Below are positions 3,725-62,895 of a stretch of DNA of 64,000 bases, one piece after another. Made by a program: the position numbers and the translations under genes. Source of the stretch: Escherichia coli (GTDB lineage: Bacteria > Pseudomonadota > Gammaproteobacteria > Enterobacterales > Enterobacteriaceae); assembly GCF_044324875.1 (NCBI RefSeq), contig NZ_CP172185.1; one strand, written 5' to 3'. Position 1 is the stretch's first letter. Every line of letters starts with the position of its first letter. The notes under the pieces were generated by a model. The model did not search any database, was not told the origin of the DNA, and worked only from the letters and a program-made list of their open reading frames with translations.

Positions 3725-4850
3725 TCCGATCCTTTCCTGGCGTCGCGTGCGGGCGCTGTGCGTCAAAGAGACGCGGCAGATCGTTCGCGATCCGAGTAGC
3801 TGGCTGATTGCGGTGGTGATCCCGCTGCTACTGCTGTTTATTTTTGGTTACGGCATTAACCTCGACTCCAGCAAGCTGCGGGTCGGGATTTTACTGGAAC
3901 AGCGTAGCGAAGCGGCGCTGGATTTCACCCACACCATGACCGGTTCGCCCTACATCGACGCCACCATCAGCGATAACCGTCAGGAATTGATCGCCAAAAT
4001 GCAGGCGGGAAAAATTCGCGGTCTGGTGGTTATTCCCGTGGATTTCGCCGAACAGATGGAGCGCGCCAACGCCACCGCACCGATTCAGGTGATCACCGAC
4101 GGCAGTGAGCCGAATACCGCTAACTTTGTACAGGGGTATGTCGAAGGGATCTGGCAGATCTGGCAAATGCAGCGGGCGGAGGACAACGGGCAGACTTTTG
4201 AACCGCTTATTGATGTACAAACCCGCTACTGGTTTAACCCGGCGGCGATTAGCCAGCACTTTATTATCCCCGGTGCGGTGACCATTATCATGACGGTCAT
4301 CGGCGCGATTCTCACCTCGCTGGTGGTGGCGCGAGAATGGGAACGTGGCACCATGGAGGCTCTGCTCTCTACGGAGATTACCCGCACGGAACTGCTACTG
4401 TGTAAGCTGATCCCTTATTACTTTCTCGGGATGCTGGCGATGTTGCTGTGTATGCTGGTGTCAGTGTTTATTCTCGGCGTGCCGTATCGCGGGTCGCTGC
4501 TGATTCTGTTTTTTATCTCCAGCCTGTTTTTACTCAGTACCCTGGGGATGGGGCTGCTGATTTCCACGATTACCCGCAACCAGTTCAATGCCGCTCAGGT
4601 CGCCCTGAACGCCGCGTTCCTGCCGTCGATTATGCTTTCCGGCTTTATATTTCAGATAGACAGTATGCCCGCGGTGATCCGCGCGGTGACGTACATTATT
4701 CCCGCACGTTATTTCGTCAGCACCCTGCAAAGCCTGTTCCTCGCCGGGAATATTCCGGTGGTACTGGTGGTGAACGTGCTGTTTTTGATCGCTTCGGCGG
4801 TGATGTTTATCGGCCTGACGTGGCTGAAAACCAAACGTCGGCTGGATTAG
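3717..4850 (+). CDS. ybhS: ABC-2 family transporter permease YbhS
   Basis: Multi-TM ABC-2 permease; start at ATG 3717 (MSNPILSW...); overlaps ybhF stop. Confidence 0.9.
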
Positions 4851-12935: not shown

Positions 12936-13925
12936 TTAGCCGCCAATGTACGATAAGTTTTGCGTAATACCGGTGTTATTTTGATGCAGGAAATGGGTCT
13001 GTTTCTTCTCCCGCAGCGCCGCTGAAATACGCGCTTCCAGCGCCTGTTGCTGGGTATCGTCTTCCAGCAGATCGCGCAGGTTAACGCCGCCCTCACCAAA
13101 CAGGCAGAGATGGAGTTTACCAATGGAGGAAACGCGCAGGCGGTTGCAAGTGGCGCAGAAGTCTTTTTCATACGGCATGATAAGGCCAATCTCTCCGGCA
13201 TAATCTGGATGGCAAAAGACTTGCGCGGGACCGTCGCTGCGTTGACGTAATTGGTGGATCCAGCCGCGACGCAGTAGCTCGTCACGCAGAACCTGACCAG
13301 AGATGTGATGCTTACGGAAGAGCTCGCTGCCCTCGCCCGTTTCCATCAGTTCGATGAAACGCAGCTGGATGGGACGATGCTGTATCCAGTTCAGAAAGGT
13401 GTCGAGCTGATGATGATTAACATCACGCATCAGCACGGTATTGACTTTGACCTTCTCAAAACCGGCCTCAAATGCAGCATCGATCCCTGCCATGACCTGG
13501 TTGAATTTATCCTGCCCGGTAATAGCGTGAAACTGGCGGGCGTCCAGACTATCAACGCTGACGTTGATGCCAGTAAGTCCAGCATCGCGCCAGTTCGCCA
13601 CATCGCGTTCCAGACGGTAACCATTGGTGGTGACCGCAATCTGGCGGATAGCGTCGTTTTCTCGCACAGCGGCGATGATATCGGTAAAGTCGCGGCGTAA
13701 AGACGGCTCACCACCTGTCAGACGGACTTTTTCGGTGCCCAGACTGGCGAAGGCGCGTGTAACCCGGCGAATTTCATCGACGGTAAGAAAGCCTTTATTG
13801 GTGACGCCGCTCGGTTTGTAGCCATCCGGCAGGCAGTAGGTGCAACGAAAGTTACACACATCGGTAATCGACAGGCGCAAGTAGTAAAACTTACGCGCAA
13901 ATGCATCAGTCAGTTGTGAAGCCAT
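12936..13925 (-). CDS. moaA: GTP 3',8-cyclase MoaA (radical SAM)
   Basis: Start ATG 13925 (MASQLTDAF...); CxxxCxxC radical-SAM motif (CNFRCTYC) and C-terminal second cluster. Confidence 0.9.
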
Positions 13926-13929
13926 GTAC

Positions 13930-14090
13930 ACCTTTCCAGATACGGGAGGCGAAGTCATTTCTTCCTTCGCCCTGGTGGCAATCTTTACGAGCATTGTCAC
14001 GGCCAAAGCACCGTATCAGTTGACCCAGGTGCAGAGGCTAGAGTGTTTAGTGGTTAAGCCGATACTAGCGCGTAAATGAGATTTTTACCA
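13930..14090 (-). ncRNA. Probable Moco riboswitch in the moaA 5' leader
   Basis: About 160 nt untranslated leader directly upstream of moaA; the E. coli moaA leader is known to carry the Moco RNA motif. Boundaries approximate; fold not verified here. Confidence 0.4.
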
Positions 14091-27032: not shown

Positions 27033-27408
27033 GCCACTCTATTTCGGGTGCCGCTGAGGTATCAACACGGTTCAGCAGTACCCTGTATTTTTTCCACGCC
27101 AGCAGTAACGTCTGTTCATCGTCTGTCGCCATTTCCAAATCAACGGCATCCTGCAGCGGTGCTATTGCGTTATTTGCTACGGTCAGTAGTGCTGATTTCT
27201 GCAGCTCAGCCTCCGCAACTAACGCGTTGTGAGAGCGTTCTGGGGGAGGTGGCGCGGTAAATACTCCGTCTGAATATGACCAACCGATGCCAGCATCGCC
27301 GTTTAACGGAACTAAATTACCAGCCTCTGGTTTCCATTCAGAAATTCCGTCCCAGATAATGACATCAATAACAACGTTATTATCAACAACTGCATAAACA
27401 TCATTCAT
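27004..27408 (-). CDS. Tail fiber assembly protein (Tfa chaperone)
   Basis: 134 aa; N-terminal [11 protein letters not shown]... and C-terminal WPxxP motif; immediately downstream of the tail fiber gene. Confidence 0.75.
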
Positions 27409-33414: not shown

Positions 33415-35322
33415 TTATCGTGGAAAACGAAAAGGGGAATACCCCACATCGTGCGTGATTTTCATCAGGGGATCGGCTTTGCCCGGTACATCAATTATCT
33501 TCATACCTGGCGGAGCATTCTCGAACGTGACTTTCAGTTCGCTGTGCTGTGTCATGGAAGAAGATGGATTCAACAGCGGAACATTGGGTTTGTACTGGCT
33601 CAGGCTGGCCTGATACTGCTCGTACTCTTTACGATCAAAAAAAGGCGTCCAGTCTGAAGCCAGAAACAGCCCTTTATTATCCAGCCAGTTAACCGTATCT
33701 TCAGGAACAACACTTTCCAGAGTATCTTTAACCGGCTCATACATCAGGGTTCCCAGAAAACCATATCCCCCGGCCTTCCCGATAAAGCCGCGGCCTTTCC
33801 CCATCAATCCCGTTTCTGCCGATACCTTCCCCAGCGTACGCATCTCTCTGGTCACTGCGGTAATGGATTTGGTAACGTCAGCAACCCATTTGGTTGCCAT
33901 AAACAGGGCAATCGCTTTCAGAACAGTTTCCCATCCCCCCATCGCCTGCGCCGTTTCATCCACCACGTGCCAGACTTTTTTTATGACAGGGCCTACGGTT
34001 TCCCAGTTATCAATAATGAGGTAAGCGCCACCAACCAGAAGAGCAATCAGCCCCTTAGCTGGCGTCATATTCATCACACCGCCGAGAACTTTCATAATTC
34101 TGGACAAAGAGCCTGCAGCGGCTCCCACCGTCAGTAAGGCCAGACCGATTTTAGCAATGGTCTTAACGAGCTCCGGGTTTTCACGGACAAACGTTCTCAC
34201 TTCCTCAAGGAGCGGTTTTACCGCTTCAAGACCATCATTAACCTCAGGAAGAAACGTTTCCCCCAGCGTGGAAGAAATGGCATCAAGTTGATTTTGCAGA
34301 AGTAAAAGCTGGTTTTCCGTCGTCGCTGCCCTCGAAGCATATTCCTTCTGCATCGAACTGCCATACTGCTGGGAATCCGCAACCCGCCTGAAGTTGGTAC
34401 GCAACAAATCAAGGTTAGTCAGCAGAGGTGCTATCGCGCCCAGAGACTCTTTCCCGAACAGGGCATTCAGCACAGCGGCCCGTTTTTCTTTAGGCACTTT
34501 AGCCATCGCATCCAGTACAGACAGCATGGTGCCCCGGGCATCTTTCTGCATATCAGCAGCTAATTTCTTCGGATTGATCCGCAGAAAACGCAATGCCTGT
34601 TTCTGCGATTTTGTCGCAGAATTTCCCGCGGTCAGGGAAAGCATGAAGTTCTTGATCCCTGTGGCGGCAATTTCTGACTCCACGCCCATCCCGGCAATGG
34701 TTGCCCCCATTGCCGCAATTTCGCCGGAAGCCACACCTGCAACACCACCTAAAGGACCAATACGCGTAACAATATCGGAGATTTTCTTCGCATTCGCCGG
34801 GCCGGTATTACCAAGGTAGTTGATTTTGTCAGCCAGCCCGGCCACTTCATCCTGCGTCATATTAAACGCAGTACGCCACTGGGCCATCATCTGCCCGGAC
34901 TCTTCAGCCGTTGTATCAAAGGCCACGCCCATCTTCACCGCATCAGTGGCAAACTGCATCAGTTCATCACGTGCAATCCCGGCCTGACCGCCAGCCGCCA
35001 CAATTTCCGCGATCCCGTCTGCAGACATGGGAAGCTCTGTAGACAAAGCGCGTACCTGCTCCGTCATGGCCTTAAATGCATCCGGCGTATCCAGACCGTC
35101 CACCACTTTGCGGACATCAGCCATCTTCGATTCAAGGGTGATGGCTGATTTTACAGGGAGTGCCAGTGCCCCCATTATTGCAGTACCCGCCCCGGCAGCA
35201 CCCAGAGCAAGGCTGGAGACTTCTTTCTGAAATCCCTTAAGCTGACGCTGCATACCTTTAAGCGGGCCGGATAGCCTGTCAACGGCGGTGATGATGGCTT
35301 TCAGCTGAAAATTATCAGCCAT
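33415..35322 (-). CDS. Tail tape measure protein
   Basis: 635 aa, Ala/Gly-rich helical protein between chaperone and baseplate genes. Confidence 0.8.
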   Translation of the reverse strand: MADNFQLKAIITAVDRLSGPLKGMQRQLKGFQKEVSSLALGAAGAGTAIMGALALPVKSAITLESKMADVRKVVDGLDTPDAFKAMTEQVRALSTELPMSADGIAEIVAAGGQAGIARDELMQFATDAVKMGVAFDTTAEESGQMMAQWRTAFNMTQDEVAGLADKINYLGNTGPANAKKISDIVTRIGPLGGVAGVASGEIAAMGATIAGMGVESEIAATGIKNFMLSLTAGNSATKSQKQALRFLRINPKKLAADMQKDARGTMLSVLDAMAKVPKEKRAAVLNALFGKESLGAIAPLLTNLDLLRTNFRRVADSQQYGSSMQKEYASRAATTENQLLLLQNQLDAISSTLGETFLPEVNDGLEAVKPLLEEVRTFVRENPELVKTIAKIGLALLTVGAAAGSLSRIMKVLGGVMNMTPAKGLIALLVGGAYLIIDNWETVGPVIKKVWHVVDETAQAMGGWETVLKAIALFMATKWVADVTKSITAVTREMRTLGKVSAETGLMGKGRGFIGKAGGYGFLGTLMYEPVKDTLESVVPEDTVNWLDNKGLFLASDWTPFFDRKEYEQYQASLSQYKPNVPLLNPSSSMTQHSELKVTFENAPPGMKIIDVPGKADPLMKITHDVGYSPFRFPR

Positions 35323-57934: not shown

Positions 57935-57986
57935 GTTGTTGGGGATAACCAGATTAACCGAATCCTTGTTGTTGGGGAATAACCAG
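57935..57986. repeat. Direct repeat pair gttgttgggg(a)ataaccag upstream of the 144-aa gene
   Basis: 18/19-nt copies at 57935..57952 and 57968..57986, just upstream of the 57919 start codon. Confidence 0.4.
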
Positions 57987-58206
57987 GTCCACCTCGCCTG
58001 ATGTGGCTAAAAGCAGGCACATAACAGCTAAGTATTTTCAACCAGAGAGAATCCTTAGCGTTGTGGTGAATGCGGCTCAGCGCACGCGGGTTAAGGTTGA
58101 GGCTGACAGTCGACCTTCTGTGGATACCCACCCGCCTGGTGTGCAACCTTCGCCAGGCACCGGGAGGCACCCGGCACCACAACTTTATGCTGCGTGTAGT
58201 CTTGGC

Positions 58207-58250
58207 GGTACCAGCTTTTACCCTTGCTTCCGGCTGGTACCGTCCTTTTT
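58207..58250 (+). terminator. Rho-independent terminator/attenuator in leader upstream of yfdP-like gene
   Basis: 9-bp stem ggtaccagc / gctggtacc with 17-nt loop followed by gtccTTTTT; GC-rich region with overlapping non-coding-looking ORFs. Confidence 0.5.
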
Positions 58251-58387
58251 ACAAAACAGAGAAGAGCATTACCGGACGACGGGCTCATAACTCAATCCAT
58301 CCGGGCGGCTGCCACCGCAGGTGTTCTTCTCTGTTTTGTGGAGAAACTAATCGGCTTTGCAGGGTCGATATGATGAGGAGCAGCAAA

Positions 58388-58750
58388 ATGGCTAGCGAAC
58401 GCAGTACTGATGTGCAAGCATTTATCGGGGAGCTGGACGGCGGCGTATTTGAAACCAAAATCGGCGCAGTTCTCAGTGAAGTCGCTTCCGGTGTGATGAA
58501 CACGAAAACCAAAGGTAAGGTCTCACTCAACCTGGAAATCGAACCATTTGATGAAAACCGTGTGAAAATCAAACACAAACTCTCATATGTTCGCCCGACT
58601 AACCGCGGGAAAATTTCCGAAGAAGACACCACCGAAACGCCGATGTATGTCAATCGCGGTGGTCGCCTGACTATTCTGCAGGAAGACCAGGGACAATTAC
58701 TGACTCTTGCCGGTGAACCTGACGGAAAACTCCGCGCAGCAGGTCATTAA
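58388..58750 (+). CDS. YfdP-like early protein (CPS-53 family)
   Basis: 120 aa from ATG 58388 (MASERSTDVQAFIGELDGG...). Confidence 0.65.
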   Translation: MASERSTDVQAFIGELDGGVFETKIGAVLSEVASGVMNTKTKGKVSLNLEIEPFDENRVKIKHKLSYVRPTNRGKISEEDTTETPMYVNRGGRLTILQEDQGQLLTLAGEPDGKLRAAGH

Positions 58751-61514: not shown

Positions 61515-61628
61515 TAGAGCCATACAGCCTCACACTCGATGAGGCCTGTTCATTGCTCAATGATATCCAGACCTACCATCGCCGCATCAATGCGGCTTTT
61601 TCTTGCGTGTAATTGCGGAGACTTTGCG

Positions 61629-61847
61629 ATGTACTTGACACTTCAGGAGTGGAACGCTCGCCAGCGACGCCCAAGAAGCCTTGAAACAGTTCGTCGATGG
61701 GTGCGCGAATGCAGGATATTCCCTCCTCCGGTTAAGGATGGAAGAGAGTATCTGTTCCACGAATCAGCGGTAAAGGTTGACTTAAATCGACCAGTAACAG
61801 GTAGCCTTTTGAAGAGGATCAGAAATGGGAAGAAGGCGAAGTCATGA
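61629..61847 (+). CDS. xis: Excisionase Xis (lambda type)
   Basis: 72 aa from ATG 61629 (MYLTLQEWNARQRRPRSLETVRRWVRECRIFPPPVKDGREYLFHESAVKVDLNRPVTGSLLKRIRNGKKAKS), matching lambda Xis; overlaps int start. Confidence 0.9.
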   Translation: MYLTLQEWNARQRRPRSLETVRRWVRECRIFPPPVKDGREYLFHESAVKVDLNRPVTGSLLKRIRNGKKAKS

Positions 61848-62895
61848 GCGCCGGGATTTACCCCCTAACCTTTATATAAGAAACAATGGATATTACTGCT
61901 ACAGGGACCCAAGGACGGGTAAAGAGTTCGGATTAGGCAGAGACAGGAGGATAGCAATTACTGAAGCAATACAGGCAAACATTGAGTTATTTTCAGGACA
62001 CAAACACAAGCCTCTGACAGCGAGAATCAACAGTGATAATTCTGTTACGTTACATTCATGGCTTGATCGCTACGAAAAAATCCTCGCCAGCAGAGGAATC
62101 AAGCAGAAGACACTTATAAATTACATGAGCAAAATTAAAGCAATAAGGAGGGGGCTACCTGATGTTCCACTTGAAGACATCACCACAAAAGAAATTGCAG
62201 CAATGCTCAATGGATACATAGACGAGGGCAAGGCGGCGTCAGCCAAGTTAATCAGATCAACACTGAGCGATGCATTCCGAGAGGCAATAGCTGAAGGCCA
62301 TATAACAACAAACCCGGTCGCTGCCACTCGCGCAGCAAAATCAGAGGTAAGGAGATCAAGACTTACGGCTGACGAATACCTGAAAATTTATCAAGCAGCA
62401 GAATCATCACCATGTTGGCTTAGACTTGCAATGGAACTGGCTGTTGTTACCGGGCAGCGAGTTGGTGATTTATGCGAAATGAAGTGGTCTGATATCGTAG
62501 ATGGATATCTTTATGTCGAGCAAAGCAAAACAGGCGTAAAAATTGCCATCCCAACAGCATTGCATGTTGATGCTCTCGGAATATCAATGAAGGAAACACT
62601 TGATAAATGCAAAGAGATTCTTGGCGGAGAAACCATAATTGCATCTACTCGTCGCGAACCGCTTTCATCCGGCACAGTATCAAGGTATTTTATGCGCGCA
62701 CGAAAAGCATCAGGTCTTTCCTTCGAAGGGGATCCGCCTACCTTTCACGAGTTGCGCAGTTTGTCTGCAAGACTCTATGAGAAGCAGATAAGCGATAAGT
62801 TTGCTCAACATCTTCTCGGGCATAAGTCGGACACCATGGCATCACAGTATCGTGATGACAGAGGCAGGGAGTGGGACAAAATTGAAATCAAATAA
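61825..62895 (+). CDS. int: Integrase Int (lambda-type tyrosine recombinase)
   Basis: 356 aa, essentially lambda Int (MGRRRSHERRDLPPNLYIRNNGYYCYRDPRTGKEF... with R-H-R-Y catalytic residues); adjacent to the gal-proximal att core. Confidence 0.95.
   Translation: MGRRRSHERRDLPPNLYIRNNGYYCYRDPRTGKEFGLGRDRRIAITEAIQANIELFSGHKHKPLTARINSDNSVTLHSWLDRYEKILASRGIKQKTLINYMSKIKAIRRGLPDVPLEDITTKEIAAMLNGYIDEGKAASAKLIRSTLSDAFREAIAEGHITTNPVAATRAAKSEVRRSRLTADEYLKIYQAAESSPCWLRLAMELAVVTGQRVGDLCEMKWSDIVDGYLYVEQSKTGVKIAIPTALHVDALGISMKETLDKCKEILGGETIIASTRREPLSSGTVSRYFMRARKASGLSFEGDPPTFHELRSLSARLYEKQISDKFAQHLLGHKSDTMASQYRDDRGREWDKIEIK

Follow-up and report, generated by a model that had tools for sequence, protein, structure and literature searches.

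The stretch of DNA between the immunity region and yfdP in a lambdoid prophage of Escherichia coli (positions 57990 to 58387, 398 bases, of 64,000 analyzed nucleotides [nt], hereafter termed the window) is a structured noncoding leader of the early-left operon yfdP-yfdQ-yfdR...xis-int, and its center is very probably a divergent member of the STnc100/EcOnc27/PasD family of small RNAs (sRNAs). The right early operon of this prophage is encoded on the minus strand and the left early operon on the plus strand. STnc100 was discovered in Salmonella, and Rfam lists it as an sRNA of gammaproteobacteria whose function is unknown; RNAs of this type are among the most often annotated sRNAs in enterobacterial genomes (PMC9029176). 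In the window, the element is made up of the following parts:

58060-58183, plus strand: probable STnc100-family core, 124 nt, five helices and a pseudoknot
58060-58068/58175-58183, plus strand: P1, closing helix of 9 base pairs (bp)
58072-58087, plus strand: P2, 5 bp plus a bulged A, loop UCAGC
58093-58098 (AAGGUU)/58145-58150 (AACCUU, in the P4 loop), plus strand: pseudoknot
58134-58141/58151-58158, plus strand: P4
58160-58174, plus strand: P5, CCGGG-AGGCA-CCCGG
58158-58179, plus strand: family-invariant 22-mer CACCGGGAGGCACCCGGCACCA, spanning the end of P4, P5 and the start of the 3′ strand of P1

The Rfam model of STnc100 (RF02076) aligned end to end (model positions 1 to 206 of 206) with 58042-58253 at 42.8 bits (E values of 4.8e-7 in a 5-kb search and 6.2e-6 in 64 kb), which lies below the gathering cutoff of 47 bits. 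Relatives in sal3 (37.5 bits) and locus L056 (34.7 bits) as well as the first core of locus L010 (38.5 bits) also stay under this cutoff. Rfam-based annotation pipelines are therefore not expected to report the core, and no noncoding RNA is annotated at the stretch in the RefSeq genomes examined. A second covariance model, R1, was derived from 20 relatives in late operons, to the exclusion of the window and its close kin; MAFFT misaligned P4 on full-length cores, and the variable middle was therefore collapsed for model building. R1 detected 58062-58181 with 44.2 bits (E of 1.7e-8) and nothing else in the window with an E value below 1. It also matched SfV, ST64B, sal3, L056, L021, L010 and the late region of HK639, which carries a true STnc100, and gave no match in lambda or HK022.

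The family plan consists of P1 (UGGUG/CACCA plus variable extensions), an AAU junction, P2, a variable middle, P4 and P5. P4 comprises 24 to 26 nt in most members, is separated from P5 by 1 or 2 bases, and P5 runs directly into the 3′ strand of P1. All of these elements (UGGUG/CACCA, AAU, P2, P4, P5 and the 22-mer) are present at 58060-58183. The 22-mer occurs once in the window, where no copy is expected even when three mismatches are allowed, and at least 120 IMG/VR contigs that differ strongly in their flanking sequences carry exact copies; a full-text literature search for it returned no match. Beyond these letters, the core shares with STnc100 the linker and terminator that follow it, the lambdoid prophage setting and the orientation, which is that of its operon. 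It differs in its P2 and pseudoknot letters (GCGGCUCAGCGCACGC subtype), in its early-left site, in having no abutting pR'-like promoter and in being followed by a second conserved RNA domain (domain 2).

The unconstrained minimum free energy (MFE) fold of 58060-58183 reproduced P1, P2, P4 and P5 along with two local hairpins, and the family helices covary across the relatives. In the alignment of the 20 late-operon members, 86.8% of the paired cells could pair, compared to 40 to 50% with slid partners, and double changes were seen in 19 pairs; none of 500 shuffles reached the observed values. The pseudoknot joins the segment after P2 to the P4 loop, which are complementary in nearly every family type. 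It was significant (p<0.05) in 21 of 28 representatives in a loop-shuffling test, with a combined p of 3e-19 for sequences that are not independent of each other, and is formed by at least 10 different duplex sequences, among them AUCAGC/GCUGAU, CCAGUC/GACUGG, CUGGUG/CACCGG, UGCGGC/GCCGCA, GGCAAA/UUUGCC and UAACCC/GGGUUA. P2 and the pseudoknot differ between subtypes by compensatory changes. In ST64B, a local hairpin that competes with the pseudoknot is weakened, and the letters of the pseudoknot itself are unchanged. The P5 of Klebsiella phage Kp4866-6 and of coliphage LLS reads GGUGG-AGGCA-CCACC, a compensatory change of both stem strands around an intact loop (L131 and LLS). Pseudoknot complementarity in these diverged cores reached a p of 0.0015 in L131 and was not significant in LLS (p of 0.25). 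The pseudoknot, the tRNA-like layout discussed below and the early-operon subtype are not mentioned in the family papers examined here.

The core is embedded in a leader whose remaining parts upstream of domain 2 are as follows:

57989-58018, plus strand: conserved 5′ block CCACCUCGCCUGAUGUGGCUAAAAGCAGGC, 30 nt, first module of the leader
58027-58059, plus strand: hairpin GCUAAG...CUUAGC of the MFE fold, directly before the core
58184-58203, plus strand: A/U-containing linker between core and terminator, single-stranded (unpaired in the MFE fold)
58204-58250, plus strand: intrinsic terminator T1 with a 12-bp stem (58204-58215/58233-58244), a 17-nt loop, CC and five U (58246-58250)

The plus strand of 58056-58258 folds at -84.8 kcal/mol (z of -2.9), a value that was matched by 1 of 200 shuffles, and the minus strand gave a z of -1.55. 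The structure of the stretch is thus real, strand specific and far beyond chance. An initial annotation, made from the letters of the DNA, had described the stretch as GC-rich, highly structured and noncoding, with short overlapping open reading frames (ORFs) that lack convincing ribosome-binding sites, an intrinsic terminator at 58207..58250 and further stable hairpins. This description holds in all of these points. The terminator is real and its coordinates were essentially right; T1 has an energy of -22.4 kcal/mol and begins 21 nt after P1 of the core. Our consensus scanner missed it because its loop limit is 8 nt. T1 occupies the same place in SfV and others, and another terminator is substituted in ST64B. 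The G+C content of the stretch is 54.0%, compared to 40.4% and 46.4% in the adjacent upstream and downstream kilobases, respectively; since the window average is already 51.1%, the stretch is GC-rich in a local sense only.

ORFs of 41 to 226 amino acids (aa) overlap in several frames of the stretch, and the translation of one of them, such as 58003-58290 (95 aa) or a 5′ extension of yfdP starting at 58070, would account for the open frames of 49 to 226 aa and for the "hypothetical protein" that some public annotations place here. We regard this as extremely improbable. Searches of the ORFs against Pfam and PHROGs returned no match, and neither frames nor lengths are kept in SfV, ST64B, sal3 or L056. 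By eye, the ORF starts are not preceded by a Shine-Dalgarno sequence, and the RefSeq PGAP annotation calls one ORF a frameshifted pseudogene in a 98.7%-identical genome. Substitutions across the relatives track RNA pairing rather than codons, and a conserved frame with synonymous-biased change was not seen. A coding role of these ORFs was therefore rejected.

The 5′ block is kept in SfV, in the divergent L056 and in LLS (L132, about 1140-1175). In LLS it lies approximately 15 nt after the start of the leftward promoter pL, the position held by putL in HK022. Its letters could form the overlapping helices CCAC/GUGG and GCCUG/CAGGC, possibly as an H-type pseudoknot, with no covariation in either. 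The hairpin at 58027-58059 has a counterpart in ST64B, the palindrome UAAGAG...CUCUUA. The linker, whose sequence varies between family types, takes the position of the variable "seed" of the relatives.

Downstream of T1 lies domain 2, the second conserved RNA domain:

58248-58342, plus strand: domain 2, three-way junction (RNAalifold, 14 variants)
58248-58270/58320-58342, plus strand: outer stem, which includes the U-tail of T1
58272-58276/58300-58304, plus strand: stem S1
58281-58293, plus strand: inner hairpin GGGCUCAUAACUC, a 7-nt loop CUCAUAA on G-C pairs (GGG/CCC)
58305-58318, plus strand: variable hairpin S2

The consensus fold holds 35 pairs, 6 of them with compensatory changes. S1 varies from CCGGA/UCCGG to CCGGG/CCCGG, CCUGAU/AUCAGG and ACGGAU/AUCCGU among Escherichia, Salmonella, Klebsiella and Pantoea phages. 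The 21-nt center of the domain (motif GACGGGCTCATWAYCCAATCC) was found in at least 120 IMG/VR contigs representing 69 local types, and the domain had no match in an Rfam search. The domain, whose hairpin has the consensus GGGCUCAUAAYCC, also occurs at L130 1503-1570, at L133 1215-1275 and in loci L134 to L250; the CUCAUAA loop on GGG/CCC corresponds to the anticodon arm of initiator tRNA (tRNA-fMet). Domain 2 usually lies 40 to 60 nt before a yfdP-like start. Klebsiella and Pantoea phages carry it in the late region, preceded by a tRNA or a terminator; in Klebsiella phage Chronis, a true tRNA-Asn stands before the module. We considered the long hairpin at 58251-58339 as a second terminator and rejected it, since the U-run of domain 2 pairs within the outer stem, unlike that of a canonical terminator.

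Most of 27 representative copies of the core were found in one of two places, and all of them are oriented as their downstream genes. The first is between Q (of several families) and the holin gene, right after a pR'-like promoter (TTGAC-17/18-TAAATT) whose start coincides with P1. The second is downstream of stxB or another cargo gene, at a distance of about 100 nt, with a large ORF that we take to be the nanS-p esterase gene following about 280 nt later. The subtype with GCGGCUCAGCGCACGC as P2 is distinct in lying after a repressor gene and before yfdP-like genes (the window, SfV, ST64B, sal3 and L056); it is present in more diverged form in Kp4866-6 and LLS. The core directly precedes yfdP-like genes in the same orientation in the window, SfV, ST64B, L056, L131 and LLS. 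Of 94 distinct types, 76 have a terminator that starts no more than 80 nt downstream of the core (median, +29). Six types have no terminator within 260 nt, and the L056 core runs straight into the yfdP-like gene; these terminator-less relatives indicate that the core has a role that does not need release as an sRNA. Loci L004, L005, L017, L049, L054 and L107 each carry two or three cores, 220 to 2,700 nt apart on one strand and each with its own terminator.

In LLS, no ORF separates the repressor gene from yfdP, and the 540-nt leader has the order pL, 5′ block, terminator, hairpin, core (about 190 nt downstream of the pL start), linker, terminator, domain 2 and ribosome-binding site. Since about 15 nt and no ORF separate this leader from the pL start, the module is ancestrally a pL leader, and the leader of the window is an LLS-type module that has been parted from pL by an insertion of about 850 nt comprising a boxA, a small ORF and an opposite-strand gene.

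The stretch could also be a decaying remnant, a late-operon leader cassette that recombined into the early-left operon and lost its function. Its module order resembles that of the late leaders, K-12 CPS-53 has lost the leader entirely, and the mEp460-type variant lacks the 22-mer. Against this, phages of Escherichia, Salmonella and Klebsiella keep the element at the same location and with compensatory changes. Among 5426 complete E. coli genomes, 2858 contain a match to at least part of a 551-bp query (57900-58450) that takes in the start of yfdP, and in 1284 genomes the match extends over 80% or more of this query. We consider loss of function very improbable.

The mEp460-type variant (L128 2856-2990; also cdtI, 2H10, Ayreon and Stx2c phages) keeps P1, AAU and the P2 hairpin, and CCGG-AGAUCAGCA-CCGG replaces the invariant P5. 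Two minus-strand "hypothetical proteins" are annotated over this type of core and may be spurious. In K-12 CPS-53, pL, core, T1 and domain 2 are missing from the yfdO-yfdP spacer (L125 9248-9604), and the sequence becomes homologous to the window again only from the ribosome-binding site of yfdP onward; the spacer holds GACGGGTCAGATTTTGA-like repeats. With the whole leader gone, K-12 CPS-53 was rejected as a model.

The surroundings of the leader within the early region are composed of the following features:

near 56107-56310, minus strand: cro-like gene of the right early operon, with cII-like and O-like genes
56398-57072, plus strand: LexA-family, cI-like repressor gene, left early operon
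57084-57103, plus strand: terminator between the cI-like gene and pL
57112-57139, plus strand: pL, TTGACA-16-CATAAT, 11/12 in the promoter scan, overlapped by operator ATGTACCTTTGGGATACATA
57250-57261, plus strand: exact rrn/nut-type boxA GCTCTTTAACAA, the sole exact match in 64 kb
57307-57510, plus strand: 68-aa ORF (phrog_1744, a family of unknown function), the sole ORF in the position of N, with no arginine-rich motif by eye
57485-57919, minus strand: ECs1072-family gene, before the stretch
58375-58380 and 58388-58390, plus strand: Shine-Dalgarno sequence GAGGAG and ATG of yfdP (phrog_204; annotated likewise as YfdP in relatives)

Repeats of the operator were also found at 56313-32 and 56364-80. 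Because the operator recurs between the cro-like and cI-like genes, the promoter at 57112-57139 is assigned as the repressor-controlled pL, and it is the nearest upstream promoter of this kind that is able to feed the leader. Downstream of the stretch follow yfdP, yfdQ and yfdR and then xis and int (61825-62895). Just before the likely xis start, at 61581-61596 of the plus strand, a terminator-like hairpin (GCCGCATCAATGCGGC plus TTTTT) would be a further barrier between pL and xis-int. Q (PF06530) is encoded at 50192-50551 on the other strand and is not followed by a copy of the core. The boxA, for which about 0.008 matches are expected by chance in the window, is situated about 105 nt after the pL start and directly follows the hairpin of a minus-strand terminator (57229-57248). 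This site, and not the stretch, has the nutL-like position in the pL leader. No N-like protein and no clear boxB partner were found for it, which suggests a Nus-factor-dependent, rrn-style anti-Rho protection of the pL transcript.

Divergent ECs1072-family genes lie 140 to 160 nt upstream of the core both in the window (after cI) and in L028 (between Q and a pR'-like promoter); the L028 gene (2896-3342, minus strand) is 29% identical to that of the window (E of 4e-16). The occurrence of gene and core in two unrelated settings points to a recurring gene-plus-RNA neighborhood. The 5′ untranslated region of the ECs1072 gene in the window holds two to three direct repeats of about 34 nt (57930-57995; GCGTTGTTGGGGATAACCAG..., GTTGTTGGGGAATAACCAGG...), and the last of these resembles the start of the core (TTAGCGTTGTGGTGAAT). 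Elsewhere in the window, a molybdenum-cofactor riboswitch matched at 13913-14057 (minus strand, 103 bits), and an IS009-like RNA match at 27053-27241 (minus strand) was subthreshold (48.8 bits; cutoff, 117 bits).

Based on this arrangement, we propose that the leader would both make an sRNA and throttle the operon. Polymerase arriving from upstream would transcribe the core, starting either from pL upon induction or from an unmapped local start; pL is considered as the source since no conserved private promoter was found. Most transcripts would stop at T1 and thereby release a stable RNA of roughly 125 to 260 nt, depending on the position of the 5′ end, that has a structured 5′ body, a linker without secondary structure and, as its 3′ end, a terminator of the type bound by Hfq. 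This RNA would act in trans, as the late-operon relatives do. Only the read-through fraction would carry domain 2 and express yfdP...xis-int. We put the chances of this scheme as a whole at about even.

Expression or Hfq association has been shown for relatives of the core (PMC5331693, PMC7873438, PMC4104026). The EHEC strain EDL933 contains 11 transcribed STnc100 copies, one of which was verified by Northern blotting, and STnc100 relatives accumulate in lysogens as discrete RNAs of 160 to 210 nt (PMC5331693); by analogy, these fit an sRNA that ends at T1. One copy, about 75 to 100 nt after stx2B, overlaps EcOnc27/sRNA103, an Hfq-bound sRNA that forms a "dyad" with the antisense sponge AsxR (PMC12711010, PMC7873438). 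Such dyads are placed between the late promoter and the lysis genes in at least 8 Sakai prophages, and "why this arrangement occurs is unclear" (PMC12711010, PMC7873438). PasD, represented by the sRNAs PasD1 and PasD2 of EPEC and related to STnc100 in a 2026 preprint, has targets in RIL-seq (RNA interaction by ligation and sequencing) data (10.64898/2026.05.13.724894).

Several observations weigh against the family assignment or the proposed sRNA. Membership falls short on the curated score (42.8 of the 47 bits) and on the usual location, and on these two points only; STnc100 RNAs usually reside in the late operon, from Q, pR' or stx to the lysis genes, and the core is found between the cI-like gene and yfdP. 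Neither scanning nor comparison detected a conserved promoter directly upstream of the core. The scanner identified no private sigma-70 promoter, and a GAGAAT box at 58047-58052 was dismissed as a promoter since it is not conserved in ST64B and lacks a -35 element. T1 has a long loop and only five U. In L056, L021, L010, L028, L032 and L044, no terminator separates the core from the next gene. Finally, the most conserved part is the folded body and not a single-stranded seed, which is unusual for base-pairing sRNAs.

The direct fusion of core and yfdP in L056, with no terminator in between, would suit a cis-regulatory sensor, in which yfdP translation or Rho access would be set through the binding of a small molecule, or of a protein from phage or host, to the core or domain 2, in the manner of a riboswitch or a protein operator. 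Complex pseudoknotted folds with invariant junction nucleotides, and the constant placement of domain 2 at 40 to 60 nt before the yfdP-like start, are also in line with sensing. We nevertheless judge it decidedly improbable. No alternative pairing between core and T1 was found, terminators differ freely between relatives, and the next gene follows at distances between 60 and more than 350 nt. The genes served by the core are unrelated to each other (holin, yfdP and, downstream of stx, an esterase gene that we take to be nanS-p), and Rfam gave no riboswitch match. A riboswitch-type pairing of core and terminator involving GGAGGGG, shared between P2 and the terminator, is confined to Stx-type copies and was rejected as a general rule.

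The initial annotation had further placed the stretch after the immunity region and before yfdP, in the leftward early operon, noted the absence of an N-like gene and located the stretch where lambdoid phages carry pL and nutL or an RNA of the HK022 put type. The operon assignment stands, as does the missing N, for which the phrog_1744 ORF is the only candidate. The exact site and the put identity do not. pL and boxA lie 0.75 to 0.9 kb upstream of the stretch and are separated from it by an ORF and an opposite-strand gene, with the core 920 nt from pL, and no similarity to HK022 put was seen in sequence, in R1 or in the fold. We located putL and putR of HK022 by position, and blastn-short returned chance words only; the annotated 126-nt putL feature of HK639 (34187-34312) is unrelated by eye. 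An Rfam scan of HK022 and HK639 at the gathering cutoff revealed no put family. Like HK022 put and HK639 putL, the element is a structured leader RNA of an early-left operon that precedes terminators in a lambdoid phage lacking N, and it resembles putL also in that the LLS leader begins right after pL. However, a put RNA consists of two stem-loops that meet at a bifurcation, about 70 nt in total as seen by cryo-electron microscopy (PMC9378689), in contrast to 124 nt with five helices and a pseudoknot for the core. It occurs in one copy after pL and one after pR, whereas the core of the window is single and remote from pL. Put RNAs enable polymerase to read through later terminators without accessory factors, an activity that rpoC mutations in the zinc-binding domain block. 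As for lambda nutL, which combines a boxA with a boxB hairpin shortly after pL and works with the N protein, P5 is superficially boxB-like, being a 5-bp G+C stem with a 5-nt purine-rich loop, and the prophage has an exact boxA; the boxA is, however, about 0.8 kb upstream of P5, N-like protein is missing and P5 is part of a larger fold. The element is thus neither put nor nut.

A functional analogy to put is a separate matter, and it takes up in a new form the suggestion of the initial annotation that antitermination may be RNA-based. The core could be a cis-acting processive antiterminator, put-like in function only, which binds its own polymerase or recruits a host factor and thus passes T1 and later terminators, so that pL transcripts would reach xis-int in a phage without N. 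Several features agree with this: no N-like gene exists, the authors of the LLS report find no N either and guess at a put-like RNA (PMC12315714), and the LLS leader, about 15 nt after pL, contains two intrinsic terminators before the first gene. A terminator-like site precedes xis in the window (61581-61596). Family members stand at the heads of long operons in the same orientation, often at +1 of a pR'-like promoter, and are found upstream of sequence-unrelated terminators; the invariant 22-mer suggests an invariant host partner, and some copies have no terminator of their own. On the other hand, there is no sequence or fold similarity to HK022 putL/putR or HK639 putL, and the copies in late operons occur alongside various types of Q, a protein that already fulfills this task. 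Short terminated STnc100 RNAs accumulate in lysogens, and the adjacent terminator is therefore not efficiently overridden. A second copy after pR is missing, and one of the LLS terminators is upstream of the core. Overall, we find antitermination possible but unlikely. A wider form, in which the pseudoknotted and possibly tRNA-derived core represents a second class of phage RNA, of unrelated structure, directed at the transcribing polymerase or a conserved host factor, appears distinctly unlikely. In that form, the core would carry pL transcripts through the leader terminators to xis-int in SfV, ST64B, LLS and this prophage, all without N, and the "small RNAs" of lysogens would be its terminated by-product.

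Three further RNAs of lambdoid phages were compared with the leader. StxS (the pR'-tR' transcript of Stx phages) and lambda 6S are likewise leader RNAs that end at the first terminator and gate an operon, and StxS is also an Hfq-dependent sRNA; both differ in being late-operon RNAs, and StxS is reported to be 74 nt long (Sy et al., 2020). A distant homology to lambda 6S was suggested by the look-alike GUUGUGGUAGUGA and was discarded, since R1 finds no match in the lambda pR'-tR' region. DicF (RF00039) is an sRNA of an early-left-like operon in a defective lambdoid prophage, and by eye it has 17 of about 20 letters in common with the leader around UUGGCGGUA(C/U)CAG. Its match at 58191-58245 scored 23 bits against a cutoff of 48 (E of 0.099 in the 5-kb search), was absent from the whole-window search and was rejected; it arises because the shared letters fall in the T1 stem, where the hairpin differs.

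The layout of the core and the initiator-like hairpin of domain 2 raise the question of a tRNA origin. In this explanation, the two would form a tRNA-derived module that stems from a phage tRNA array and works via the machinery that handles tRNAs, be it by signaling RNase P cleavage or 3′ trimming or by acting as a decoy of enzymes that target tRNA, with P1 acceptor-like and stacked on a T-arm-like P5, P2 D-arm-like and domain 2 initiator-tRNA-like. As read from the sequence, the strand topology of P1 and P5 is that of acceptor and T arms, and 21 of 135 cores lie 20 to 100 nt after a tRNA on the same strand. L010 (4133-3215, minus strand) carries on one strand an early-type core, a pseudo-tRNA, a late-type core and, after 12 nt, tRNA(CAU). 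The pseudo-tRNA scores 24.8 bits with the Rfam tRNA model, contains an insertion of about 75 nt, and agrees in the letters of its acceptor and T stems with P1 and P5 of the early-left core type. This array suggests that the core family may descend from, or recombine with, phage tRNA genes. The domain 2 loop CUCAUAA matches the initiator anticodon arm, and the motif follows tRNA-Asn in Chronis. Conversely, neither the Rfam tRNA model (E of 1 or below) nor ARAGORN gave a hit on core or domain 2, the P5 loop has 5 nt instead of 7, and P1 is 9 bp long with CCA inside the helix. The link hinges on one pseudo-tRNA, possibly a recombinant, and ancestry would not fix the present function. A role via the tRNA machinery thus seems improbable. 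L010 also shows a weak third core-like match at 4346-4471.

Taken together, these results show that the STnc100 family very probably reaches, with scores under the cutoff of the database, into the early-left operons of lambdoid phages without N, which form a large group. The conserved part of the family is a pseudoknotted folded body with an invariant 22-mer and not a seed, and the core travels with a second, so far undescribed RNA domain that bears an initiator-tRNA-like hairpin. EDL933 alone has eleven copies of this family, one of them beside the Shiga toxin genes, and reviewers have called the fixed lambdoid position unexplained. The stretch bears on how lambdoid phages without N get past their leftward terminators, and the fold of the core provides a structural handle on what the STnc100 family binds.

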